This document shows, in pieces, positions 1,513 through 64,000 of a stretch of DNA of 64,000 bases; position 1 is the first letter of the stretch; each line of letters begins with the position of its first letter. The position numbers and the translations under genes were made by a program. The notes beneath the pieces are model-generated. The model ran no database searches, was not told the origin of the DNA, and was given only the letters and a program-made list of their open reading frames with translations. Origin of the DNA: Macrostomum lignano (taxonomy: Eukaryota). Where the stretch lies: assembly GCA_002269645.1 (NCBI GenBank), contig NIVC01003750.1, positions 15,026 to 79,025 of the forward strand, read 5' to 3'.

Positions 1513-19753
<18,241 letters not shown>

Positions 19754-26022: not shown

Positions 26023-31107
<5,085 letters not shown>

Positions 31108-47445: not shown

Positions 47446-47714
47446 AGTAGTATATAAAAAGACGCTTCTAGACCCAGAGCACTTTTTTAATGACCGTTTT
47501 AAGGGTCTAGAGGGGGGACACGGGGGGTAAATAAAAAAACACATCTAAACACCATTAATACATCTAATCACCCATAATCACCCCTAACAATAAAAATCAT
47601 TCCCAACACTTCCAAACACTCCCCAACACCCCCCTCGCGTCCCCCCTCTTAAGACCTTACAAACGGTCATTAAAAAAGTGCTCTGGGTCTAGAAGCGTCT
47701 TTTTATATACTACT
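47446..47714. repeat. Terminal fold-back: AGTAGT...ACTACT inverted repeat (~55 bp perfect, ~80 bp imperfect) around a G-free spacer
   Basis: 47446-47499 is the reverse complement of 47661-47714. Confidence 0.9.
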
Positions 47715-47936
47715 ACTCTATAACCCCTTGCCCGCGCCGCAGGCGCGAAGGGTAGGAAAGAATAGAAGCTATTTATAGTCAGCTCACCTACCCACCCAAC
47801 ATTCCATTTAGACCAGATTTTAGACCAAACAAAACTAGACTATCGTTTTGGTTTTCGTTTTCAAAAATTTGGTCTAAAATCTGGTCCAAATGGAATGCAG
47901 ACAATCTTTTTTCTGTTACTAAAAATAGAACAAAAA

Positions 47937-48335
47937 ATGACACACGTTACACATATGCAAAATCTGAATGAATTGCAGGTAGGAGACCCAGTTGAATACC
48001 GAGGTGAGGGGCTTTTTGATGTGGTTGGAACAGCAGCAAATTTTGTTAAAGACAATATGGGGCTTATAGGGCAAGCTGGCTCCGCAGCAGGTTCTATAAC
48101 AAATGCTGTAAAAGGAGGAATTGAAGCAGCTAGAGCGGCAGAAGAACTAAAGAAATTGAGAGATTTTAACGACACCCTCTCACAAATAAATGCAATAAAA
48201 GATTTAAAGCTGGCACAAGCCGCACAACCAACAGAAACCCCCACGAAAAGCGCGCCAATAAGTAATAAAGATATTCAGGATTTTAATAAAATGTTAACCA
48301 CAATTAAAGGCGGAAAAGGATTAAAGAAATTTTAA
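47937..48335 (+). CDS. Polinton core/membrane-active protein candidate with adenain-type cleavage motifs
   Basis: YRGEG-LFDVVG amphipathic stretch, IKGG motifs; the start codon (47895, 47937 or 47955) is uncertain. Confidence 0.6.
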   Translation: MTHVTHMQNLNELQVGDPVEYRGEGLFDVVGTAANFVKDNMGLIGQAGSAAGSITNAVKGGIEAARAAEELKKLRDFNDTLSQINAIKDLKLAQAAQPTETPTKSAPISNKDIQDFNKMLTTIKGGKGLKKF

Positions 48336-48345
48336 CAATATAAAA

Positions 48346-49008
48346 ATGGACACAGATAACGACCGCTTATATTTTATAGGAGAAATTGTAGATACTTTAG
48401 ATCTAGATGATAATAAACATAGCCACACAATGTTAAAAAGATTGGATCGATTAGGTAAAAAGTTTGACTACGACATCGATACATTTAAACTCGCAGCAAA
48501 ATATGCACAAGAAGGAAGGCCGATATCCTTTAAGAATCGCGGCAGAAATTATAGGTTGACAGACTCCGATGTGAAATTTTTAATGGAGACTCACACTAAA
48601 AAGGACGGCGGATTACTACCCATTCTACCGCTTCTTTTAGGACTTGGCGCAGCTGGAGCAGTCGGTTTAGCCGGAAAAAGAATTCATGATAATGTAAAAC
48701 AGCTAGGAGAGTTAAGAGCGAAACAGGGGGGAATCTTGCCCCTTGCAGCTTTGCTCCCAATAATTTTTGCAGGAATTGGAGCAGCTGGAGGAGTTGCTGG
48801 CGGAGCAGCTGGAATTGCAAAAGCAGTAAATGACAAAAAAGCTGCGGACGAAAAAGCTAAAAGAGAGGCCGAATTTCAAAGACAGCAAATAACGCAGGAC
48901 GCACAATTTAAACAAAACTTATCGATACAATTAATAGTAGTTCAGCAACAGCTGAGCAAAAAAGAAATGCAGAAGCTAGGTTATCAGCTGGAAAAGGTTT
49001 ACTGTTAA
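48346..49008 (+). CDS. Adenovirus pX-like core protein with two GG-(I/L)LP motifs
   Basis: KDGGLLPILPLLLGLGAAG and KQGGILPLAALLPIIFAGIGAAGG resemble adenovirus pX MRGGILPLLIPLIAAAIGA. Confidence 0.7.
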   Translation: MDTDNDRLYFIGEIVDTLDLDDNKHSHTMLKRLDRLGKKFDYDIDTFKLAAKYAQEGRPISFKNRGRNYRLTDSDVKFLMETHTKKDGGLLPILPLLLGLGAAGAVGLAGKRIHDNVKQLGELRAKQGGILPLAALLPIIFAGIGAAGGVAGGAAGIAKAVNDKKAADEKAKREAEFQRQQITQDAQFKQNLSIQLIVVQQQLSKKEMQKLGYQLEKVYC

Positions 49009-49019
49009 ATGGCAGTGGT

Positions 49020-49319
49020 TTGGTACTAAAAGGAACAACCCAAGGAAGTGGAGTTGTCGCAGATAAACTACATGAATTTGGCCAAACTTTAGAAAAAACG
49101 GGTGAGAAAGCTAAAGGATTTTTTGACAATATTGGATCCAATTTTAGGCCAGCAGTTCAGAAGATTTTTACTAAGTTAGGAAAAGATTTTAACATCATTG
49201 AAAAACACGACGGAAGCGGATTATATCTCGAAATGCGACCAAAAGCAGGTTCAGGAATTTTCTTAAATTCAAATGTTATGGGCAATGGATTGCTATTACC
49301 AAAAGCAGATCTCGAATAG
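49020..49319 (+). CDS. Small Polinton protein with GSG/GNG repeats and an amphipathic helix (pVI-like)
   Basis: TQGSG, HDGSG, KAGSG, VMGNG; the GEKAKGFFDNIGSNF segment looks amphipathic. Confidence 0.55.
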   Translation: MVLKGTTQGSGVVADKLHEFGQTLEKTGEKAKGFFDNIGSNFRPAVQKIFTKLGKDFNIIEKHDGSGLYLEMRPKAGSGIFLNSNVMGNGLLLPKADLE

Positions 49320-49402
49320 ACTCCTGGGGGGTGGGTCAAGACACCAAAAACGCAAATTAAAAAATCAATAATTCAAACATTATATAAATTTTATTCTATA
49401 AA

Positions 49403-52400
49403 ATGGAAGCAATTTTAGCTCAAATCGACAACCCTGAACTTAGAGCACAATTAATAGCTCAAATCGATGCACAACGAATTGCCGATAGGGCTGAAATAGA
49501 AGCAAGAATTAGGGCAGAAAATGAGATACGTTTAGAAAGACAATTAAATGATATTAATAACCCCCAACCACAAGTACAAAATGGAGCTGAAGTAATATAT
49601 ATAGATATAGATATAAATACAAATTATAAAGAATATTTTAAACAAATGAAAGATAAATTAAAGACTATATTAAACAATTATACTATAAGGCCAAATAACA
49701 AACGACAGCCAATTAAGTATAAAATAGAAGTTGAAACAGAATTTAAAAAACCAAATATTCTTAATGCAAATTCAGAAATTGAAGTAATAAATAACTTTTC
49801 ACAAGAATCATATAAAACATTATTATCAATGGGAAATTACAACAATCAATTCGATCAAATAGAAGCTGAGTTTGATGAATGGATAGATAAGATGACAGAA
49901 AACGGATCTGGGTTTATATTTGTATCCTGTAATTCAGCAATAGTAAAGATTGCACCTATAGAAATTCTTAAAGGACGATCACATATGAAGCTCAAATTTA
50001 AATCACCTATGATTATAAATCCAGACAATAAAGATAATAAATGTTTATTATGGTGTTTATTAATTCATAAATATCACAATCAAGTAGAATCACACATTAA
50101 TAAAATATATAATTATAGACAATATGAGGATGAAATAATAATGAAAAACATATCATACCCAGTAGCAATAGATGATATATATAAGATTGAAAAAATGAAT
50201 GGTTTAAATATTAATGTGTTTACAATTGAAGAACCAAAAGATCTAGAAGAAATTTTAACCGATCCAGAATGGTATAAGAAAAGGTGTTATCTTGTTAAGC
50301 CAGCAACTGATATAACAGCACCAGATCAAATCGATCTTTTGTACATGCAGCGCGAAAATGAAACACATTATATATACATAAAAGATATTAGTTCTTTTTT
50401 AAGAGAAAATAGAAATAGATATCCACTATGTAGAAATTGTTTTACATTTAAAAAGGATGAAACAGCTCTTAAAAACCACCAACGATTTTGTTTAGATCAC
50501 AAATTTACTAATGCTATAATGCCAGCATCTGAAGATGCAACCCTAAAGTTCCAACAACATTATATGGCAGTTAAAAAACCAATAGTAATATATGCTGATT
50601 TTGAAGCAACAAATGTTCCCTTAAAAGAACCACAAACAGTATCTGATGACGATCATGCAAAGCATGCGACCCTACGAGACGGTGAATGCACAAAAAAATT
50701 GGCACAACAGTTTCCGAATAGTTATTGTATATATGTACACTCTGTAGCTGATCATATATTTAAATCAAGGATGATTACTTACCACGGTAATGATGCAGCT
50801 AAGCACATGGCAGAATCATTAGTAAATGTATTTGAATATATTCAAAATCAATATGATAAATTATCAAAAAATATTAATATGACAAATAAGGATAGAGACA
50901 ATTATAAAAATGCAACAAATTGTTTTATGTGCAAAAGACATTTAAGTAAGAATAATAAGATACGAGAACATTGTCATCTAACAGGAAATTATCGAGGGGC
51001 AGCATGTAGATCATGTAATGCAAAAGAAGGAAAAGGATGTAAGGAAATACCAGTATTTTTTCATAATGGTCCGGATATGATTTTCATTTCTTAGTTCGAG
51101 AATTGCTTCATTTAGGAAAGGATGAATATGAAATAAATATATTACCTAAAACATCAGAAAATTACATATCAATAACATATGGTAAGAAATACTCCCATCT
51201 AGTTTTTCTAGATTCCTTGAGATTCTTATCAACATCTTTAGCAAATGTTGTTTCATCATTAGTTCCAAAACCATGGGATTTAGAAATAGTAAAGAAAAAC
51301 TTTCCAATCTTATTGAATCGTTTCAAAAAAGAAAAACTATCCGAGGAAGAACTAATGCTATTAACTCGTAAGGGCATCTACCCATATGAATATGTAACAT
51401 CTGAAAGAGTATTTTTCATACCGAATTACCCCCAATTGAAAAGTTTTATTCAACATTATCACAAACAAACATAAGTGAATCGGATTATGAACACGCTCAA
51501 AAAGTATGGAAATACTTTAATTGTAAAACATTTAAAGATTATCATAATCTATATCTTAAAGCAGATGTTCTCCTATTAGCTGATGCATTTGAAAACTTTA
51601 GGAATCATACATATGAGAATTTTAAAATTGATCCCGCATATTGTTTCAGTGCACCGGGATTAACATGGGCTTGTGGTTTGAAACATACAGATGTTAAGAT
51701 TGATTTACTAACTGATCATGATATGTTGTTAATGATTGAGAGAGGAATTCGCGGCGGATTCTCGGTGTACTAGGAGATAGATATACTAAAGTAAATAATA
51801 AGTATCTTCCAAATTATAATAAAAAAGAAAAATCATCATATGTATTATATCTAGATGCAAACAATTTATACGGTGGTTGTATGAAACAAAAATTACCAAT
51901 AGCTGATTTCCAATGGGAAGATGACCCCGATTATTACAAAAATATTCCCGAAGGAAGGGGCTGTATCGTAGAAGTGGATTTGCAATATACTCGGGAAGCA
52001 AAAGCAAAAACATATAAATATCCTTTAGCTCCAGAGCATTGTTCAGTTAATGAAGATGATTTATCACAAACACAAAAAGATTATCTTAAAGTAGATAATG
52101 CAAAACATCTAGCAACAAAAAAATTAATATTAAATTTACATGATAAGAAAAACTATGTAGTGCATTATAAGCTTCTACAATTTTATGAAAAGCAGGGATT
52201 AAAAGTGTCTAAAGTACATCGAACAATATCGTTTATTGAGGAAGATTGGTTAGCTAAATATATTGACTTTAATTCAAATCAGAGACAGATGTCAAAAACA
52301 ATTTTGAGAAAGATTATTGGAAATTAATGAATAATGCTTTTTATGGAAAAACGGTTGAAAATATTAGAGATAGAACCCAATTCCATTTAGAAAAGGATAT

Positions 52401-53394
52401 TGATAAAGCAAAGAAATATTTCTCAAAACCTAACTTTAAAGACTTTATAAAATTTGATGATAACTTTATGGGTATTCATATGAGAAATAAAACAACAAAA
52501 TTTCTTAAACCAATATTTATTGGAATGGTTGTTTTAGATTATGCAAAGCTGGTAATGTATGAATATTATTATGATGTTATAAATAAAACATGGCCAGATA
52601 ACTATCCAATATATGCAGACACCGACAGTTTGGTATTTAAGGTTGAAACAGAGGATCGGGCAAAGCCCGCGAACCAAAGGTTCGATGTCTATAAAGATAT
52701 GGAAAAAATTAAGGATACACTGGATACCTCCGACTATCCGGATAACCATCCTTTAAAATCAGATCAAAATAAAAAAGTTGTACTTAAAATGAAAGATGAA
52801 TTAAATAGCAAAATCATAACCGAGTTTATAGCAATAAGATCAAAATGCTATGCATTTAAAGTTTTAGGACAGGAGGGAGAGGTAAAAAAAATAAAAGGGG
52901 TATCAAGGGCAGCAGTTAAAAAGATAACATTTGATGATTATAAAAACGTACTTTTAGATTACCTTAATACAATTGAAAATTATCATGCTCCACAATATCG
53001 ATTAAATTCAGATAAGCATCAGATGTTTGTCATCGAGACAGATAAAAAAACATTAAGTCCATTTGATGATAAAAGATATTTAGATGATAAAATTAAAACA
53101 TATCCATATGGTTTAAAAGAAGAGATAAAAAATATGATAAAAGATAAAAAACAAAAAGAAGATATAATAAGCAAATATAATGAATACAAAGAGGCAATAA
53201 ATAATTATTATTACGATTGTGATTGCGAATCCGAATGTGAATGTGAATATAATACATTTCTAGAATATGAAAAAGATATAGATAATTATTATTCAACATT
53301 TCCAAAAGAACTTAAAAAATTAAATAAGGAAAAAGTCTTGAATAACTGGAAGAGATTAACAGAAAAATTACTTATCGGGTCTGTAAAAAACTAA
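49403..53394 (+). CDS. polB: Protein-primed family B DNA polymerase (pPolB), four single-base frameshifts (~51070, 51415, 51775, 52300)
   Basis: IYADFEA ExoI, FHNG(S)GYD ExoII, RKGIYPYEY, LYLKADVLLL, LDANNLYG motif A, KLMNNAFYGKT motif B, YADTDS motif C. Confidence 0.95.
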
Positions 53395-53727
53395 AGCATG
53401 TAATTGTTTGAGCAAATCATTAACTTCAATTTCATATATTATTGAGCACCAATTATCCTCACAGTCGTCAGGGTAACTTAAACAATCCTTTATTTTTTTC
53501 CTAAGTTTTTTTATTTTTCTAACCAATCTATCTATTTCAATTTCAATTACTATTTCAGCATAAACAATATCTTGTCTTAAAAAACGTTTTCTTTTATCTA
53601 TCTCATATCGGATGGGAAACATATCGTCCCCATACTCATGATATTTCTGAGATATAATTATATTTATTTTTTTATTAATATCATTAAGTTCACGCTCTTT
53701 AGTGATAAGGATTTTTATCGTATCCAT
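53368..53727 (-). CDS. Polinton hypothetical protein (helical, basic)
   Basis: 119-aa ORF in a gene-dense region, AT-rich upstream context. Confidence 0.55.
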   Translation of the reverse strand: MDTIKILITKERELNDINKKINIIISQKYHEYGDDMFPIRYEIDKRKRFLRQDIVYAEIVIEIEIDRLVRKIKKLRKKIKDCLSYPDDCEDNWCSIIYEIEVNDLLKQLHALVFYRPDK

Positions 53728-53742
53728 TTTCTTATAAAAAAT

Positions 53743-54075
53743 TTAGTCTTCGTCGTCATCCTCCCAAACAGCCGCCAATTTTACAGTCCTATCACTCTTT
53801 TTATTATTTGTTTGTTTTAGTTTAAATTGCAATCCACCCTCGTTGCAGTATTTCATAACAAACGCTTTAGGTTTATTAATAACTAAAACAGGAAAATTTT
53901 TAACATCATCTCCGCTTAGACATAAAATTTTTTGCCCATCTAATTGTAAAAATATCGATTGAAGTCCAATAAATTTAACCTGTCTCAAACATACAATATT
54001 ATATTCTTTATTCTCCAACATATTGGGTGTGAGATAATTAATCACATTAGAATCGGTTTTGAACCAGCTCTCCAT
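53743..54075 (-). CDS. Polinton hypothetical protein with acidic C-terminal tail
   Basis: MESWFKTD...WEDDDED; ATG preceded by an A-run. Confidence 0.55.
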   Translation of the reverse strand: MESWFKTDSNVINYLTPNMLENKEYNIVCLRQVKFIGLQSIFLQLDGQKILCLSGDDVKNFPVLVINKPKAFVMKYCNEGGLQFKLKQTNNKKSDRTVKLAAVWEDDDED

Positions 54076-54102
54076 TTTTAATCTAAAAAAATAACAAAAA
54101 AA

Positions 54103-54615
54103 ATGAAAGACATTTATGTTTGTAATAAATGTAATGTGACTATGCACAGAGGGCAAACAGCAAACGGAGATATATATCATATGTGTTATTCATGTTCTAA
54201 AATATATCAATTTGAAAAAACAAAAAAGATTGAAAACTCATATTACTATTTTAAAAATACAATTTTAAGAAATCTTACAAGAGACATTTCTGATCCAATT
54301 TTAATTCCCGGAAATAATGTTTATTTATATAATAACTTTTTCCATTTAAATAAAGGAAAGGGATTAAGTTCGAAAGACTCCGAAAGGATTTTAATTTTAG
54401 TTGGATATTATTTCAATTTTCTTATTCGAGAGAATACAAAGTTTATAAGGATAGGTAACATACCTAACGAAATGTTATTGAAAAAGTCATTGGAATTTTT
54501 ATGTATTGATAAAAAATTTAAACCTAGGATCAGAAGAGAGTTACCACTTTGGGAAGAATATATAACATATGCATTAGAAAAACTAAACAACCTGAAGTTC
54601 TACCGCACTTCCTGA
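54103..54615 (+). CDS. Polinton hypothetical protein with N-terminal zinc ribbon
   Basis: CNKC...CYSC. Confidence 0.6.
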   Translation: MKDIYVCNKCNVTMHRGQTANGDIYHMCYSCSKIYQFEKTKKIENSYYYFKNTILRNLTRDISDPILIPGNNVYLYNNFFHLNKGKGLSSKDSERILILVGYYFNFLIRENTKFIRIGNIPNEMLLKKSLEFLCIDKKFKPRIRRELPLWEEYITYALEKLNNLKFYRTS

Positions 54616-55236
54616 CCGCGGGCTTTGTGCCCAGTAGCAATAGTTTCAGGTTCGTAAATGCCTAATGTTTCTATCGGTGGAGCTTTGGGTTTATCGAGTC
54701 TCAACTCTTTTAATTCCATATCGGTAAAAGTTTCAACATCTAAAATTCTATTTCTATCTTTTAAATATTTTTCATATAACTCAACCGCGGTTGATAATTC
54801 ATGAATCGTTATCTCTCCGTCATCCAATATTTTTTGCACATATAAATATAACTGATTTTTATATTGCTTGGCAACATCTCTTAATGATTTATATTTTTCC
54901 TTTCTTTTTTTAAGATATAATTTAATTGCTAAAAGTATTGATAAGTTCTGATCAATTCAAAACCTGATATTGAGCCAATTGAAATACCTAAAAATAATTG
55001 AGATAAATTAAGAGTTGGAATAGATTGTAAAATACCTAAAACGATTACACATAACATTGATAAGCTTCCAAATCCAATATTGAAAAATCCATATTTCTTA
55101 TATGGTTTGAAACTCTTCTTACTTTTTTAGTATATAAATCATAATCATAGTTAATACGATCAACATTACTTAACATCTGACCTTTACGTTGGTTGAACCG
55201 GTCGCGTTCCCATTTATCTGCTTCAGATACCGACAT
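54600..55236 (-). pseudogene. Polinton membrane/coiled-coil protein, frameshifted
   Basis: The pieces join into a helical protein with a central hydrophobic hairpin (LGISIGSISGF) and a ILDDGEITIHEL...YEKY tail. Confidence 0.55.
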
Positions 55237-55248
55237 TCTCGTCTATTT

Positions 55249-55548
55249 TTAATAGCACCAAAATGAATTCCCCACGCTCTTTGGGTATTTGCCCGAGCTC
55301 AATAGGTATTGTATTGGAGTTATTCTTTCTTTTTTCTCCCATTTAAATCCTATTTTCCAAAACTCTTGAAGTATAATATGATTTTTTAATAACTTAATTA
55401 ATTCTTGAAGCTTCTTATTATCCTGAACATTTACAGTACTAAATAAAAATTTGGTATGAGATTTGAATGTTTTTATATTTGATTCTTGTTTAGGAATAGG
55501 AATAATAACATTATTTTGCCGCATCGATGGAGTTCTACTAAAAGCCAT
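55249..55548 (-). CDS. Polinton hypothetical protein
   Basis: 99-aa ORF with ATG preceded by an A-run. Confidence 0.45.
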   Translation of the reverse strand: MAFSRTPSMRQNNVIIPIPKQESNIKTFKSHTKFLFSTVNVQDNKKLQELIKLLKNHIILQEFWKIGFKWEKKERITPIQYLLSSGKYPKSVGNSFWCY

Positions 55549-55586
55549 TTTATATATAAATATTTAGATTTGTACGGGTGGTTTTT

Positions 55587-57425
55587 CTAAATAAGCGGTA
55601 GAGGAAAAACATAACCAAACGATGTGCTACCACAAACGGCTGCGCCACGAATAAAATGTGCAGCATCCGATCCTCCAGTTCGAGCACCAAAACCCATAAG
55701 GGTTCCAGTTTATCAAGTTCCCCAAGTTCCACTATCATATGTGAAAACGTTCTGCCAATGAGGGTAAGAATCACCAAACATTGTATGACTTAATGATACC
55801 AAACCCTTTGATTTAAAATATTAATTTCAAATAAATGCCAATCGCCGTTATCAATATTTGCATAATCTACCGTTTGATCTGCGTCAGTATTAACATCCGC
55901 GCGGCTTGATCCGTCTGATTTTTTATTACTCCATACAACGCCAAATTTATCATGCCACTCACTTGCAAAAACTATCAATCCGGCGTCGGTTGTTAATCCA
56001 GTCCCACCTTCACTTGTTGGGCGTTCGTGACAATATGCATAAAACCAAACCGCATCTGCACCATCTCCTGTAGAATTAGCGACTCGGAAATAGAAAGACG
56101 CAGATATATTTTGAAAATGTGTGAAATTGAATTGTAATGCCCCACTTACTCCACCAGTTTCACGAGTAATTCTAGCTCCATTTTGATAATCGATATAAGA
56201 AGCGTCGCCAATTAAAGAACCAACTGGATATATATCTCCAGCGGTTGTTGGATTTTGATATCCAGTCCAATTACAAATTACTGGCTCGAATAATGCGGCA
56301 TCAATCGCGGAATATTATCCAATTTATTTTTATCACCGGCAGACATTCTACCATTTGAAGTTGGAGTTGCTACCTGATCTACGTACGCTCGCGGGGTAGC
56401 AGATAGTATTTCATTTGGCCAATTAAGATCTTGAATTTCAACTCGGTGTTCAAATAATTGTATTAGACGAACCTCGATAGGTTGTGTAGCGGTGCCACCA
56501 GTTGGGAATAAAACGCTATAATATTTCCAAAAATTAACCGTTAAATTAGTTAACGCAAATGAAGTTGCTTGAATTGGTGATCCCGACGTTCGTAATACCG
56601 TCCATGCATCGGTAGCAACATTTTTTGCACGAACCGACCATCCCGAGGGTATCTCAATAGTTGCGCTGCCTGTAATTCTTAATTCATTTATTCTTCGATT
56701 ATAACCTAAAAATTCAAATTGAATTTCCATATTGGTTGTGGTTCCGGTATTTGGTGACCATTGTGTCGCAAGGCTTCCATCTCCAACTCGAAAAGCATCG
56801 TTGGTATTTTCGGATGCTGTAAGAACAACATCTGGATTTGAAGTATTTGATGTAAGCGGCGTGGCAAAAATATCGGCGTCGGTTACATTAGCTCGAGCGT
56901 TGACCTGCCCTAAATTGACCGAGTCTGTGGCCTCTGTTCCAAATAATAAATTTGTTAATTTAAAATTATTCATATTGATATTGCCGTTACGACTACCAAC
57001 CTGATTATCGACATAGTTCTTATCAACTACCGAGTTATTCGTTGTAATTGCAACATTTATAATTCGATTGTTATCCATATCTAAAGTTCCGGTTGCGGTG
57101 GCTTGAACATAACGCGAATCAGAATCAGTTCGAGAATAAGAATCAGTTATATCTCTTTTTAAATTTAACCCAGTGTCAACCTCTGATTTTGTATATGAAT
57201 CGCTAATATCTCTTTAAGATTTAATGAAGTATCGATTTCAGTTTTGGTATAGGAATCTGCAACATTCCGTTTCAAATTTAGTTTAGTATCAACTTCACTT
57301 TTTTTATAACCTTCATCTTCATTAATATATCGATTATCTCCAAATGTAACACTTATTCCACCAGATGTGCCACCACCACCACTACTTGTTGTTCCGTTCC
57401 ATGAGGGTGTTCCAGAAAATATCAT
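55587..57425 (-). pseudogene. Fibre/receptor-binding protein candidate: phage tail-fibre-like repeats, beta-sandwich and L-type-lectin-like domain; frameshifted
   Basis: SYTK(T/S)E(I/V)D repeats, DMDNNRIINVA...KNYVD, MNNFKLTNL...DSVNLGQ, NGRMSAGDKNKLDNI, SASFYFRV...GDGADA, GFGARTGG. Confidence 0.65.
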
Positions 57426-57921
57426 TTTTTACTGTCTATTTTATAGAGTCTAAAATCGTCTAAACTCGTCGATCGAACCTTAGGTTCGCATGCTTTGCAT
57501 GATAGTCTTAAATACTTGTGGTTTACACGAGCTTCATTCGAAAGTCGATATAAAAAATATAACGCTGCTTGTCCGCAATAACTTTTATCAAAGGTTTGAA
57601 ACTGTTCGTGATGATCTCCACATAAACGATTTTTAGTATGATTAAATTTGTCTTTTATTTCCTGTAACGGAGGAAGCGCGTATGAATCAAAAAAATAAAC
57701 AAGTTTTGGTTTTGAATAAACTGCTGACCAATGAACACCGTTTTTTTGTTGTGTTTCAATATTACAATGAAAGATCCATATTGTGGTAAGTCTTTGATCT
57801 CATCTCGCATAACACATCTGAATGGTTTTATTTTTAACTGCCTCGCCCAATTTGTTAATTCGATATTGCTTGTTGTGTCCGTTCCATATCTTTGTTTAAA
57901 ATCATCCCACGTCATGGTCAT
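57422..57921 (-). pseudogene. Adenain-like cysteine maturation protease, frameshift near 57735
   Basis: GVHWSAV, FFDSYA, QTFDKSYCG (His/Asp/Gln/Cys catalytic set). Confidence 0.85.
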
Positions 57922-57922
57922 T

Positions 57923-58132
57923 TTATGTTCCTGAAAAACTCTTGGTTTTAGTTAGTTTCGTAGGTGTGGGTTTTAACAATTCCTTTCTTATTTTATCAGC
58001 TTGTAACTGCCTTAATTTTGCTAGTTCTAGTTCGTAATTATCTTCAGCTTTTTTAACTTTTTCTGATTGTTTTTTTATTAAATTATTATTATTATCGTGC
58101 TTTGCACGCGAACATGTTGTTCGATTACCCAT
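57923..58132 (-). CDS. Small coiled-coil protein with MG start
   Basis: 69 aa, sits between the penton and protease genes. Confidence 0.55.
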   Translation of the reverse strand: MGNRTTCSRAKHDNNNNLIKKQSEKVKKAEDNYELELAKLRQLQADKIRKELLKPTPTKLTKTKSFSGT

Positions 58133-58176
58133 TTTTACTATAGGAAACGGACAAAGTCCTCGAACCTTTGGTTCGG

Positions 58177-58884
58177 CTAAACCTGTTTTATACGTAAAAT
58201 CACTGTTATTGACTGCCCACCAAAACTTATTAATCTATCGCTTTCATCTACAATCCTAATATAAATTGATTGAACATTATATTGATTTAATGGGTAATAT
58301 ATTGGGGTTTGAGGTGATACAATCATTTTCTCTCCAATTGGAACAGCAAGAAATGGGATTGAATAAATAATTCCACGTTGAACCAAAACTCCGTTATCGT
58401 CTGTTATATAACCACCGTTTGAAATGTCGGTTGTTATATTAATTGTATTTACTCCACCCTCTATATTTCCAACTGTATCACCGGTGCTTGATGTGGTAAC
58501 TATTCGGGAATTAAATCCAAGTATGGTTCTGAGTGAATTTGCAATTGTGAAATCAACCTGATATCCGGATCCTAGTGATAGTGTGAATCTGCCAGACGGT
58601 AAATCAACACCTATAACAATCGCGCCTGCTACCCAATCGCCGTTAGATGTTAATTCTCCTTCTATATAAGCATTCAAATCAGTATAGCTATACGCTCCTG
58701 GGTTAACGCTAAATGTTGTCCAATTGGCTCCGGAATCTTTAGAATATCTAAATTGATTATTTGTTGCATTAATTAATTGAGGCATGTTGAAAACCGAAAA
58801 TAGTATTAAACCTATTTGATAACTTAGGCTTTGATCAAGTTGTAATGGATCGCGCAATTGAATCCGTTGCTCGCTGGTTGTCAT
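58177..58884 (-). CDS. Minor capsid protein (penton)
   Basis: PLQLDQSLSYQIGL...NATNNQFRY...VNPGAYSYTDLN...SLRTILGF...PIYYPL...IRIVDESDRLISFGGQSITVILRIK, the Polinton penton pattern. Confidence 0.85.
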   Translation of the reverse strand: MTTSEQRIQLRDPLQLDQSLSYQIGLILFSVFNMPQLINATNNQFRYSKDSGANWTTFSVNPGAYSYTDLNAYIEGELTSNGDWVAGAIVIGVDLPSGRFTLSLGSGYQVDFTIANSLRTILGFNSRIVTTSSTGDTVGNIEGGVNTINITTDISNGGYITDDNGVLVQRGIIYSIPFLAVPIGEKMIVSPQTPIYYPLNQYNVQSIYIRIVDESDRLISFGGQSITVILRIKQV

Positions 58885-58981
58885 TATAAACTGTAATGTT
58901 GTACTAAATTTTGAATTAGTTCGATCTACCAATTGTTTTATAGTATTAAATTTGTAGTCATTTTTATAGTGGGAAATTAAT

Positions 58982-59069
58982 CGGACGAAGTCCGCGTTCC
59001 GAAGGAACGATCGAACGAAGTTCGCGACCCTATGGGCGATCGTACGAAGGTACGCGTGCTATGCACGAT
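58982..59069. repeat. Three tandem 29-30-bp double-hairpin elements (family also at 50654, 52657, 57472, 58096, 58148 and 59491)
   Basis: Each unit is C-stem-triloop-stem, G, CG-stem-triloop-stem-CG, AT, with different but compensatory stem sequences. Confidence 0.85.
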
Positions 59070-59857
59070 CCTCTTCTTCCTCATTATCTTCTTTTATCAA
59101 ATTTGTTAAAATTCTATGTTTCCTTTCTAACCTCGGATTGATATAAATATGTTTGTATTGGCTATCATCCCAAATTTTTTTACACATACTTTTAAATGGT
59201 TTTGCATCCAACCCGGGATTAAATCTAGCGTGAATATTTTGTAGATCATAGTTATCTAAATCAAACATTACACAACAGCTAGCATTCTTTTTATTAATCG
59301 ATTCTAATTCTCTAAAGGATTGAGTAAGATAAAAAGCTCCAATTCCATCTCCTCTACCACTAAAAAAATTTCCTTTTGTAATTCTTGATCACCGTCATTA
59401 ATACAATCATCAAAATAATTAGTGTTTTATCATGTTTTGGAATTTGATCATAGGCTAATCGGGTTGATACTCTAACAGTTGGGGCTCGATCGGACGAAGT
59501 CCGCGACCCTTCGGGGCGATCGGTGATGTTTTCTGGCTGTTGTGCCATTGTTTTACATAAATCCTCAATGTCTGCTAGATTAAATCGCGGTTCGTCATCA
59601 TCCTCATATTGCTCATATGCTCTTAACATTCTAAACAAGACATCTTTTTTTAATTTGTTTTTTAATCCATGTTTAAGAAATTCATAATATTTTATTCTAG
59701 GTTTGTTAGTATAAATTATTAAATTATTATAGTCTAGCATTCCATCTGTTGTTAATAATCGTAAACAAAGTGTGTTTTTCCTTTACCCGATCCCACCAAT
59801 TACTAAACAAAGAAAAGGATCATTTGGAAATATCTTATCGTGTTTTGCCTTTACCAT
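59059..59857 (-). pseudogene. FtsK/A32-type packaging ATPase, frameshifted
   Basis: Walker A GGSGKGKT (one extra G), Walker B LII(F)DDC (one T missing), SGRG..IGAFYLTQS. Confidence 0.85.
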
Positions 59858-59879
59858 TTTTAAAGAAATAATTTAAATA

Positions 59880-61375
59880 GGCGCGACGGTCGGAGACCTG
59901 CACTCATTTTACAGCGGCGCGTCCGAACAATCGTGCCATCAGCTTTAGCAATTGCATATATTCCGTCTAGAAACAATACGTGGGCGTCAAGTGCCTGATT
60001 ACCGGTTTTATTAATCTCTAACATATAATTAAGTCCAATATTGGCTACGTTTCTTTCTGTGCCGTTAGATCATAAACAACCACTGGATGAATGTTTAGAA
60101 CTTCTGTGGGTGTGTACTGAGGGACGGCATACGCTTCATTTTTAGCATAATCTTGATAATATTTTATAAAATCATTAACATTATTATTTGCTATATTTAA
60201 ATTTAGGGGGTCTTTAACCGGATAATATTGATCATCAACCTGCAGGCGGATATTCTGAACATTAAACTCGTTAATTGCAGCAACTGCGTTGTCTGTTGCG
60301 GTAGCTGCTTGTGCTGCTATGTCACCGATTGAAGCCAATATAAATCCCCATTTGTCTTTTACTCCTTCTATTTGTTATCTTAAACCAAACAAAAATATAT
60401 CTCACCCGACGTTTTGATGTCAGTATTTGCCACTGGAATGAATCCTGATTGTTATTAATGGTTCGCATAAAGTGTCTACGATTCAAATAAAATATTTCCT
60501 GATCATGCGTTAACTGATTATCGATGTGTTTTAAAAGCGGAGCTGTTACCTCAATAGTTGGTACGACTAATTGAATTGAATCTATACGAACTGCTATATC
60601 GGTTGAAATTGAGGTTCCATAAAGTATCCTAGGCTGATATCCACCAGATATTTGCAACTGTATCCCAAATTTAATCCTTTCCATACCCGATTTGGTGAGA
60701 AAAAACCCAAATAGTGGAAAGATTGAAAAGTCTGCTCATATGCTGTTGCTGTGGTTAAAACCGCGACTGGGAATTTATTCTGACGATCTATAAAACCAGT
60801 ATTAATATCTTTTGTATTAGTCATAGTGGTTACAACTGGAACTATGTTTGTATTAAGGTAAACAATTAGCGCTGCAGTATCTGCACCGGCTGCGTTTTGT
60901 ACATTAGGGAAAACTACTGCTTGACCGTTACCTTTATCCGGCATCCACCCAACATTATCACCAACTTGTTTTGATAAATAAGTATAATTTAAATGTTTCA
61001 AAACTCCATTAATCTCTGCGGGGTTTGATGATGTCTCAACCTCAGCACCATTAACAGTTAGTTGAGCTTGGGAAAAACATTTATAAAACCAATCATTTTC
61101 TATATTATTCCGGATCGATCTGCGATATCTCCGGCTGCAAGAGCAGTTCCATCATTTCTAGTATACAACCATCTAACGCGGAAAAACGCATTTTTCATAT
61201 CAATTATAGTGTTGGTTGCGCCGATGTCAAAAGTTACCGTTCCAGTAGTAAAGTTATTTGAATTATCACTTGTTTGGTAGGGTATAATTTAAATCTCTTG
61301 CTCTGACCTCATTAATATACTGTCGGTGCTTTTTGAAATGAAATTTATCACTCCACATAGTTTTGTTTCAGCCAT
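59880..61375 (-). pseudogene. Major capsid protein (double jelly-roll), several frameshifts
   Basis: TVTFDI...IDMKNAF, FSQAQLTVNGAEVE, IRIDSIQLVVPTIE, FQWQI...RYIFVWF, VVVYDLT; size and position typical of a Polinton MCP. Confidence 0.8.
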
Positions 61376-61423
61376 TTTTTTAAGTTAAAAAAGTTTTTTT
61401 ATGTTAAAAAAATGAGTCAATTT

Positions 61424-62080
61424 ATGGACGTTGATGGAGAGTTAGCGATTTATAAAGAGAAGCAAAGATATTCTGATTTTGTTAGAAATTTACAAAAAAG
61501 AAAGTTAGGAATACAATTAGCGGTCTGAAAGATTTGCTGCTCCTTTTGTTAATCCTATTACTGGGAAATTAGTGAACTAGAAAAACAGATAAAGATCTTC
61601 TGGAAAAAATTGCTAAAAATACGGAGCCAAAAGAGGATGAAATTTTGGATGAGCCGCCAGCTTATGATGTTTGATCAAGCTCAATTGAGAGTTGCAGAGA
61701 TTAGGGCTGCAGAAAGGGGTGGAGTTGATGAATATCCGAGAGCTGCACCAACTAGTATTGCTGTGACAGATTTAGGTAATAATAATTTATCGAATTGGTG
61801 GAGTTGATAAAAATCGAAATGAACTATATAGAGAATTGTGGCGGAGCATATAATATTGTTATGAACCCTAGGGTAAAATTTAACCCTGAATTATATACTA
61901 GGGATGAATTAGTAAGTGCAAAAATTTTTTATGATGAGTTGGGAGTAAGAGCTGCTAAAATACCAGCTTGTATAAAAGGATTGTTAATTCTATAATAACA
62001 AACCAGCTGTTGGAGAAGGATTTAAACACGCGAAAATTGTTTTAGCTGCTGCGAAAGCTGCTGGACATACTGGAGTTTAA
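61424..62080 (+). pseudogene. Fragmented Polinton hypothetical ORF(s)
   Basis: Short open segments in different frames; no family recognised. Confidence 0.3.
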
Positions 62081-62108
62081 TTAATTGTTAAATTTATTTT
62101 TTTATAAA

Positions 62109-62650
62109 ATGGAACCTAAAAAGATTTGTATTAAGTGTAAACAAGAAAAACCAATGACGAAAGAATTTTATTTTTGGAGAAATGATTCAAAAAAATTTAG
62201 AAATGATTGTCGATCTTGTCATAATACCTCATCTACTATTTGGATGAAAACAATAAAGATAAATTTAATGATGAATATAGAAAAAACAAGTATCACACTG
62301 ATGATAATTACAAAATATTGTTTTAATTAGAAATAGAATTAAATTGGGCGTTGAAAAATTTTAATGACAAGGACTATATCTCATATCTATTGCACAAAAG
62401 AATTCTTTTTTGATTGGTTAAATTTCACAAGAAATATTATGTTCAAAAGATTATACTGGAAAGTTTAGATATTGATCATTTCATTCCCGCTTCTTCGTTT
62501 AGTTACAAATGAAGATCAGATGAAAAAGTCTGAACATTGGACAAATAAAAGATACTTAACTAGCGTAGATAATAACTATAAAAAAGTTAAACAACCAACA
62601 ATTGAAGAGTTTGCAAAAATTGGTGCTTTCATGTATTTTTAAGGCTATTA
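62109..62650 (+). pseudogene. Free-standing HNH endonuclease with N-terminal CxxC...CxxC, frameshifted
   Basis: CIKC...CRSC; LDIDHFIPASSF...HWTN...DN, resembling the large-DNA-virus HNH pattern IDHIIP...HYTNLQPL...N. Confidence 0.7.
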
Positions 62651-62653
62651 AAA

Positions 62654-63360
62654 ATGAACCAAATAGTGTTTGAAGGAGGATTGTTAGATGTTCAAAAAGG
62701 ATTAACAAGCTTACCACCAATCTTTACTACTGGTAAATATACAGGGGAACTACACCTACCATCAATGAACTTCACAGGTTAACCCGTGGCCTGAGTGAGG
62801 AAGGCAATGTCCTTGCTAGTCACTATTTGTGGCGACATCTCCAAATTGCGTGAAACCCGTCATACAGCTTCAAGTACCACTTCAATTGAGAAATCTTTTG
62901 AAGGAACAGAGGTAACTCCTCTTCTCGTCTCCAACAGGTAAAAGCTTGAAGACACGGTGGCAATGCGCAGCCAAGCTCCTAAGTATTTTAAATATAAGGA
63001 GAAGGTTCAGAGAGCAGACGGAGATGGGCGGTAATTATCGCCGCTTAAGGTGTGCTCCAGCCTCTTCGAAAGATTGAGGGTAAACTACCCGGGACTAGCT
63101 TAGATTTGAGATTAAATCCTGACAATACTCCAAAAGCCGATTCAATTCCAATAAATGGATTGATTGGTTAGCATACTATCACGACTTAGCATATAGAGAT
63201 GCTGACAAGAACCCCCGAGGAAGCATTAAGATTAAAACATGAAGCCGATCAAAAAATGATTCAAGGATTAGATAACTTGCAGGGATTATCGGTAGGTCAA
63301 AAATTAACTAGGTGGATGGTTAAAAAGATTTGCAGTCTAAAGTTAAATTTGGTTTGGAAT
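62654..63360 (+). pseudogene. Parvovirus-type phospholipase A2 (PLA2X-like), split by a group I intron (exons 62654-62779 and 63088 onward)
   Basis: The spliced product reads ELHLPSMNFTG/PGTSLDLRL...PIN-IDWLAYYHDLAY...KHEAD (GPG Ca-loop, HD dyad); a further 1-nt frameshift near 63157. Confidence 0.85.
62780..63087 (+). ncRNA. Group I self-splicing intron, IC1-like with P5abc
   Basis: P1 with U-G wobble, P10, P3, P4, P5a/b/c, P6, P7, P8 and P9 pairings are all readable; removal restores the GPGT motif; the terminal nucleotide is A, not the canonical G. Confidence 0.85.
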
Positions 63361-63404
63361 TAATTATAATCAACATGGAAATAATTGTGTTGAGTGTTTG
63401 TTGT

Positions 63405-64000
63405 TAAGTGCGGTGGGTTAAGTTCTGATGAGGCAAAGATTCTTCATAAAGAATATCGAAAACCTAAATTTTATAGAAAAATCATGAACTTCAAAAAGAA
63501 TGAAATTTGGTATGCTGATTTAATGTCGATGCGAACGAAAGAGGATATAAATATATCTTAACCATATTAGATGGTTTTACTCGACGCGTGGGCTGTTCCT
63601 TTGAAATCCAAAAAAGGAGAGGATGTTGCTGCTGCTTTTAGAAGTCTTGGAGAAAAAAGGCGAAAGTTTGTGTGTTGACGAAGGAAAAGAATTTTACAAT
63701 CCTCATATGTATAAATTATATCATTTTGAAAAAGGACAAGAAAGGAAAAAAGGACGCGAATGGGAGTATATTAATAAAATTTATTCTATTTTATGAGAGA
63801 GTAAAAACGCATTAATAGAAAGATTTAATAAATTTAGGTAAGAAATTATGGTTTCAGTTAGTCTTAATGTAACCAAAAGTGGTAAAAATATTACCAGACG
63901 TAGTGAAAGATTATAAACAATTCATATCATTCGGCATAAAGATGACTCCTCAACAAGCTATAACAATCCTGAAAATGTTAAAGGTACTTTTGGAGAATTT
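63405..64000 (+). pseudogene. int: Retroviral-like (rve) integrase of the Polinton, frameshifted and truncated by the window end
   Basis: IWYADLM, YKYILTILDGFTR..WAVPLKSK, VDEGKEFYN, ALIERFN, YN..YHSAIKMTP. Confidence 0.88.

Follow-up and report, generated by a model that had tools for sequence, protein, structure and literature searches.

The locus examined here raises the question of what a 308-nt insert is doing inside a PLA2 gene of a virus-like element, and how a gene interrupted in this way could still yield a protein. The gene lies at the end of the window, by which we mean the whole 64,000-nt stretch of DNA that was analysed, and consists of three parts.

62654..62779, forward strand: exon 1 of the PLA2-integrase gene, 42 codons, the last being the Gly of the PLA2 motif
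62780..63087, forward strand: group I intron of IC1 type without an ORF, with an in-frame stop at its start and A at its end (assigned by RF00028, intron-less alleles and P9.0)
63088..64000, forward strand: exon 2, the rest of the PLA2-like domain followed by an rve integrase; it is broken, its first stop lying at 63169-63171, and truncated where the contig ends

A previous sequence-only reading had placed a 308-nt insert at 62780-63087, and we arrived at the same coordinates. It had also taken the insert for an IC1-like group I intron and had named the covariance model RF00028 as a check. With a 391-nt stretch as the query, this Rfam model, whose cut-off is 50 bits, matched 62770-63078 over its whole length with 56.8 bits (E 5.8e-14), and the architecture is of the IC1 type, in agreement with that proposal. 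No match was returned when 4 kb or the entire 64-kb window served as the query, an effect of the search filter, indicating that routine Rfam scans overlook such introns. The helices are arranged along the intron as follows.

62775..62793, forward strand: P1, whose pair at the 5' splice site is U.G (62779/62789), together with the guide that forms a partial P10; three lineages share these five P1 pairs
62797..62833, forward strand: P2 and P2.1, supported by pairing and by sister introns, in which the P2.1 loop is the site of the nuclease ORF
62836..63026, forward strand: P3 (62836-62842 with 63020-63026) around P4-P6, P5abc with an A-rich bulge and a GAAA loop, and the 5' strand of P7, supported by RF00028, pairing and a constrained fold
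63010..63058, forward strand: P7 (63012-63016 with 63053-63057), containing the G-binding G-C pair 63012/63057, and P8
63059..63087, forward strand: P9.0 (63059-63060 with 63085-63086), P9 and the terminal base

At the coordinates tested, P1, P2, P2.1, P3, P4, P5, P5a, P5b, P5c, P6, P6a, P7, P8, P9.0 and P9 are fully paired. P2, P2.1, P5 and P9.0 are additions to the helices listed previously, which pair as described except for P10, where five of six pairs form in the window and four of six in the other two 3' haplotypes. A fold constrained to the model also forms upper P5a and P6b, at -94.3 kcal/mol versus -100.7 kcal/mol without constraints. Minimum-energy folding was abandoned as a route to the core, which it did not recover, and plain folding was only weakly better than that of shuffled sequences (z -1.89, 4/100); it is the covariance model and the covariation that carry the case. 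As judged from the pairings, subgroup IC1 fits, given P2.1, P5abc with its A-rich bulge and the GAAA-capped P5b; we take the criteria (P2.1, P5abc with an A-rich bulge, a GNRA-capped P5b) from the Tetrahymena model. The P9.0 pairing sets the last intron base at 63087 independently of the intron-less alleles. When nearby G residues were considered as an alternative end, two were found to keep the frame, one of which lies inside P9 while use of the other would lose the Pro-Gly codons, and both were rejected. The P6a tetraloop receptor at 62976-63001 is one base off the canonical 11-nt form, which sister lineages retain.

A search of the genome with RF00028 revealed at least 28 further introns with scores of 72.7-91 bits (28 scored, from about 29,353 rough candidates). 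These sister-type introns, of about 880 nt, occupy the identical Gly|Pro site in a second Polinton family, and 16 of the 28 contain an ORF of at least 200 aa, which begins within the P2.1 loop and extends into the core; no nuclease ORF is present within the intron at any of the 39 window-type loci. A third lineage, found on a JGI metagenome contig (L228), has the same site and the same ORF and scores 80.6 bits with RF00028. In a count made by eye across three lineages (the window, L055 and L228), 13 pairs have changed on both sides (two in P3, one in P4, three in P5a, one each in P5b and P5c, four in P7 and one in P9), with one U.U mismatch. P7 is invariant in all 39 window-type loci, and the flipped third pair of P7 seen between lineages is accompanied by a changed last base of J8/7; in the Tetrahymena structure, as we understand it, the three positions are joined in a base triple. 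P2 has a different sequence in some copies of the window's family, with four of five pairs changed on both sides and the helix kept. Most stem variants among the window-type copies preserve pairing, and the copies that break a pair do so in P8 (three), P9.0 (six) or P4 (one). Model and covariation together show that the RNA folds as an IC1-type ribozyme.

An extra 30-nt domain of two hairpins between P5c and the A-rich bulge (as in L022 and L055), with compensated stems, is present in 14 of the 39 window-type copies and in the sister type, and is missing from the window copy. Loose ends at 62400-63600 in sequencing runs X1 and X11 suggest more intron variants, which differ in their P2.1 inserts and have another exon-2 context.

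The identity of the interrupted gene was established through P0037, a naturally intron-less protein taken from an ENA record, which scores above the cut-offs for both PF08398 (40.5 bits) and the rve integrase domain (39.6 bits). Residues 7-44 of P0037 align to 62666-62779 and residue 45 resumes at 63088, with no gap or overlap. This alignment across the site identifies the host gene as a PLA2-like domain fused to an rve integrase, domains that PF08398 and PF00665 detect in natural relatives; the former label of PLA2 gene was thus correct but incomplete. The precise insertion into the PLA2 motif is confirmed by the same alignment, the intron falling between the Gly and Pro codons. The claim of a frame restored across the insert holds at the junction, which is exact, but not for the whole of exon 2, which in the window copy is broken by the stop noted above. 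Short indels distinguish the window copy from the read contigs of all four sequencing runs, and some of the damage may therefore have arisen in assembly, close to where the contig ends. A weak search of the protein collection found no full-length protein of the window's family.

Intron-less copies, for which the sequence-only reading had proposed a search, exist in the same genome as precise alleles. A search with P0037 gave 113 scored matches (from 1973 candidates), 18 of which span the site unbroken, 15 of them at 74-79% and three at 61-62%; most other matches begin at residue 43-47. The five intron-less alleles retrieved are all continuous and include three of the window's family, one of which is identical to the window exons at 109/125 and 63/68 nt. 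All of the first 50 loci examined were intron-bearing because the queries were biased, and the intron-less alleles surfaced when an intron-less protein served as the query. An exon-2 scan of viral contigs found one intron-less element; scans of viral contigs with the nuclease and with the intron-less protein found no close relative. A third, very abundant Polinton-type family carries an uninterrupted PLA2 gene (150 scored PF08398 matches of 426 candidates). The best PF08398 matches, of which six of the 150 were inspected, come from this other, intron-less family; its site (L090-L095) also reads GGNCC, yet all six copies inspected lack an intron.

Variant counts among the copies indicate that both exons are under strong purifying selection. 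Exon 1 has 15 synonymous and three non-synonymous variants (38 of 39 copies). In the PLA2 part of exon 2 the numbers are 33 and two among 24 copies with an open frame, and 27 and two among the 18 of these that end in A; in the integrase part they are 56 and 44, a ratio of 0.18 (24 open-frame copies). Because exon 1 can reach the rest of the gene solely through splicing, while the intron opens with a stop and the exons are selected, we infer that the intron is spliced, presumably by its own ribozyme from a nuclear transcript. No exon-exon joint was reported in any of the four sequencing runs, which are represented by contigs, three guessed to be RNA and one of unstated type. All four runs cover the region, and among the pieces listed both splice sites are crossed unspliced. 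Since contigs drop rare forms and may derive from DNA, these runs neither show nor exclude splicing.

The window intron ends in A, whereas the terminal G of group I introns is nearly universal according to the accessible text of two reports (PMC6545197, PMC8146996) and is found in all 28 sister-type introns and in L228. The terminal A had been put down to a damaged or misassembled copy, an explanation that does not hold, as a comparison of 39 distinct window-type loci at 63087 found A in 30 and G in nine. Use of the window copy to draw the sample has skewed it towards A. Introns of both lengths include A-ending ones (18 short, 12 long), and the same is true of G. In the A-ending haplotypes P9.0 is intact, and P10 contains three G-C pairs next to one another. 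By the same reports, the hexacoral ND5-717 intron also ends in A and its ligated exons occur in vivo with reduced efficiency (PMC6545197, PMC8146996). We regard the terminal A as a common natural allele that probably still ligates the exons, at a slower rate, helped by the intact P9.0 and the better P10.

It is also conceivable, if rather doubtful, that the family is a real homing intron in which the A allele is dead or nearly dead in splicing and is spread by recombination among copies, with the PLA2-integrase supplied in trans by G-ending or intron-less copies. Such copies do exist (nine of 39 loci, and three intron-less copies of the window's family), and the near-universal terminal G, the lack of a spliced joint in the four runs and the bias of the sample to A suit this reading. 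A and G copies moreover share stretches of exon 2 (three shared 45-mers); given this sharing and the occurrence of both on both lengths, the exon selection may not be the work of the A copies, and recombination could carry a poor allele. What makes us doubt it is that 382 open exon-2 codons are kept in 18 of 30 A copies, close to six of nine G copies, the A is found on introns of both lengths, and P7 is invariant while most stem variants keep pairing.

How the intron spreads is suggested by the ORF of its sister introns, which belongs to the Eco47II family (PF09553, 30.1 bits; cut-off 25.9). The predicted model of this nuclease is confident across the first 160 residues and resembles EcoO109I (E 6e-5, TM about 0.5). 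Among 17 homologues at 46-63%, ten end in a translated ribozyme core. In L055 (1092-1778) the nuclease frame crosses the ribozyme core for about 70 codons; homologues keep this read-through, and the read-through part is disordered in the model (pLDDT under 50). Distant relatives (about 30%) are free-standing in giant-virus and metagenome loci, where a C5 methylase adjoins them in eight of nine loci scanned; they were rejected as intron-borne, with a core beside the match in one of 90 loci (L228). The genome contains 114 nuclease matches versus 12 C5-methylase matches, the latter in exon-like triplets, so the enzyme is an orphan in this genome, without a methylase partner. The window-type introns have no nuclease ORF of their own, and a slot just upstream of exon 1 was compared across their loci.

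62109..62673, forward strand: slot upstream of exon 1, occupied by an endonuclease VII/HNH-like ORF that is broken in the window copy

At the 39 window-type loci, the slot holds an endonuclease VII/HNH-like ORF in 34, a free-standing Eco47II-family nuclease in four and neither in one. The free-standing nuclease matches the intron ORF at 66-67%. In a tree of 40 proteins, with a midpoint root and no clade test, the free copy and the intron ORF of this genome are sisters (90/82) within a clade rich in intron tails (95/93), a topology that favours, not strongly, exit of the nuclease from the intron. The tree lends no support to a giant-virus donor of the nuclease, those enzymes forming a distant clade.

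The likely target of the nuclease can be approached through its family. In the accessible text of one report, an Eco47II homologue is assigned GGNCC, "without certainty" as to the methylated base (PMC10305163). The Gly-Pro codons always spell GGNCC, and the intron interrupts exactly that word at the empty site. GGNCC occurs twice in the window's element versus 10.7 expected, which makes it the most strongly depleted among 16 such words, and none of 200 Markov simulations was as low; ratios in host control sets are 0.63-1.1, with GGNCC ranking first of 16 in two small ones, and 0.56 in the repeat-rich part of the host. In metagenome loci of the distant nuclease relatives, the depleted word is CCNGG, not GGNCC. 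We would put GGNCC as the core of the nuclease site at nearly even chances. A narrower specificity, GGWCC, found no support: both sites left in the window read GGTCC, and either base is present among the intron-less alleles. Alleles that lack the intron and keep GGNCC intact persist. An enzyme that cuts at five bases and has no methylase partner would be expected to damage the host genome, so the real site must be longer or expression restricted. Selection on the nuclease is weakly measured, with three synonymous and six non-synonymous variants (ratio 0.51, 10 copies). The nuclease probably cuts the empty site, and the intron probably spreads by homing.

The same enzyme might instead be a weapon against co-infecting viruses, acting as a restriction-like exclusion, or a mere passenger, with the intron moved along by recombination. 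We consider this unlikely, and the two roles are compatible. The C5 methylases beside the distant relatives would suit a weapon, as would the depletion of GGNCC across the entire element and not solely at the intron site, and competition between viruses has been proposed for the introns of Bodo saltans virus in the accessible text of that report (PMC5871332). That the ORF lies within the intron, as it does both in the two lineages whose DNA was read and in ten of the 17 homologues, speaks for homing instead, as does the fact that the family's word is split exactly by the intron.

The intron-bearing gene is part of a larger element with the following features.

47446..64000, no strand assigned: Polinton/adintovirus-type element between an AGTAGT terminal motif and the end of the contig, recognized by its genes and its terminus
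48346..49008, forward strand: pX-like gene, match below cut-off
49403..53394, forward strand: pPolB-like gene (Atlas lead, score 0.93, PF03175 in 20% of members)
58177..58884, reverse strand: minor-capsid-like gene, matching Preplasmiviricota clusters and L310

These genes, and the rve integrase above cut-off in relatives of the window gene, agree with the Polinton-type element recognized before. The GC content of the element falls to about 30% from 47446, and one terminus is present. Within the window, PolB had no Pfam match and a packaging ATPase no match, and a major capsid was likewise unconfirmed. The terminus at 47446-47714 contains an 82-nt inverted pair around 105 nt, and one of the two GGNCC sites lies in a 30-nt hairpin after it (47800-47897). 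In the PolB-like gene, the N-terminal part (49403-51094) has an endonuclease VII domain (PF02945, 29.4 bits), which recalls the nuclease insertions described in the accessible text on nematode Polinton polymerases (PMC10748475).

Several observations place this element in the animal's own genome. The assembly comprises 764 Mb, and the intron recurs in it at 94-100% in at least 40 copies (40 scored, from 212 candidates). Wnt exons accompany a window-type copy on contig C506 and a sister-type copy on C67, and on C757 a window-type copy occurs with a central Hox homeobox, closest to abd-A/Antp; the window itself carries ANTH-domain exons. The stretch is present in 18 sequencing runs from six studies under one organism label; none of the runs listed is recorded as RNA, and 14 are guessed to be RNA. 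From this linkage, the ANTH exons and the runs it follows that the DNA is animal nuclear and not contamination, as the sequence-only reading had assumed in naming an animal host. No COX1 was found above cut-off in the assembly. Three features, at 4977-9044, 26023-31107 and 16345-17472, are set among long minisatellites: two that from their motifs we take to be an LTR retroelement (gag-pol-like frames) and a LINE with an RNase H-like end, and the ANTH-domain exons.

A reading in which viral replication and splicing take place in a microbe associated with the animal, such as a protist, and the intron integrated in the germ line is inert, seems quite improbable. Relatives do come from environmental assemblies whose host is not given, the Polinton-like-virus introns published so far, in the accessible text, are from protists (PMC12220804), and splicing was not seen in the four runs. 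There are, however, many young independent insertions in this genome: a terminus is present in 18 of 24 oriented sister-type copies, those 18 have 15 distinct flanks, and 12 insertions have identical cores. PLA2-type genes are moreover typical of animal adintoviruses, by the accessible text (PMC8502044), and all 18 runs with the stretch bear the one organism label. Contamination, an assembly artefact or a spliceosomal intron resembling a ribozyme is effectively refuted, even though the window copy lies at a contig end with short indels against the read contigs, by the 40 or more copies, the Wnt and Hox linkage and the six studies, and because the sole stop-free in-frame GT-AG pair would take out six codons of the conserved motif.

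We thus consider it likely that the locus represents a mobile group I intron family at the Gly|Pro site of a PLA2-integrase gene, self-splicing and spread by Eco47II-type homing. The family occupies one PLA2-motif site in Polinton-type viruses, including families in an animal nuclear genome. In the mechanism we propose, the ribozyme would leave the viral transcript by self-splicing, so that the PLA2-integrase can be made, and the nuclease, without a methylase, would cut the empty site with its GGNCC core and so spread the intron by homing. The window's intron is the ORF-less form, the nuclease being in some family copies a separate gene just upstream. More tentatively, and short of even confidence for the whole, we suggest an active self-splicing intron in a protein gene of an animal virus, gating its integrase, with a newly recruited Eco47II homing nuclease that reads the invariant Gly-Pro codons, a working A allele, and all stages of the cycle (empty, nuclease inside, nuclease outside, ORF-less) in one genome. 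To our knowledge, Polintons have no RNA polymerase of their own, and this multi-copy natural case makes it testable whether a group I ribozyme splices from nuclear mRNA in animal cells. It also contributes a new candidate family of homing nucleases and two terminal alleles, A and G, that coexist naturally, and serves as a warning that default Rfam scans miss such introns.

We found no earlier description of this host context and nuclease family of the intron, and full-text literature, with most subscription papers outside it, did not describe group I introns in animal Polintons or in PLA2 genes. The previous remark that none were known from Polintons has to be narrowed, since RF00028 introns have been published for Polinton-like viruses of the protists Rhodomonas lacustris, Paulinella and Desmodesmus (PMC12220804). 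These are likewise group I introns in a small integrating DNA virus; they measure about 300-380 nt and interrupt a gene whose first part is short. They lie upstream of the capsid gene, and the accessible text gives no analysis of a nuclease, an intron-less allele or splicing, whereas the host here is a bilaterian and the gene a PLA2-integrase (PMC12220804). Animals are described, in the text available, as lacking group I introns save in non-bilaterian mitochondria and in a shark rDNA spacer, the latter reported in a 1997 meeting abstract (PMC10964413, PMC8393795). The hexacoral ND5-717 intron shares the A in place of G at its end, but is mitochondrial, obligatory and fixed, whereas A and G alleles coexist here in one nuclear element family.

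In architecture the window intron resembles the IC1 introns of nuclear rDNA (Tetrahymena type), with P2/P2.1, P5abc with an A-rich bulge and GAAA loop, and P9.0, and its ORF-less state recalls the ORF-less rDNA forms explained as remnants after nuclease loss (PMC3679873). The accessible text of that review places nuclear group I introns exclusively in microbial rRNA genes and their nucleases all in the His-Cys box class (PMC3679873); here the gene encodes a protein, the host is an animal and the nuclease is of the PD-(D/E)xK type. The previous inference that the virus took the ribozyme from a microeukaryote is not supported in that form. IC1-like words also occur in introns of environmental viruses: among 122 loci chosen by one core word, P2.1 words are found in seven and a word like the A-rich bulge in 96. 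One 18-nt core word finds more than 122 group I-like introns in IMG/VR contigs (L106-L227), several per locus in some. Other Polinton-like elements, at the identical PLA2 site, harbour the nearest relatives of the intron.

Essential genes of Bodo saltans virus likewise contain "parental" introns with a nuclease and "offspring" introns without an ORF; by the accessible text, this giant virus has a protist host, its nucleases are of the HNH and GIY-YIG types, in RNA polymerase genes, and it is not integrated in an animal genome (PMC5871332). I-Ssp6803I and I-Bth0305I are PD-(D/E)xK homing endonucleases in which, as here, a restriction-type fold serves a group I intron; they belong to other families (PF11645; Vsr-like), and the text available lists Eco47II (PF09553) solely as a bacterial type II restriction enzyme (PMC3424549). 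In collaborative homing, a free-standing nuclease adjoins an ORF-less intron (PMC11296320), an arrangement comparable to that at four of the 39 window-type loci, with the difference that the same nuclease family is found here both inside and outside the intron in one genome.
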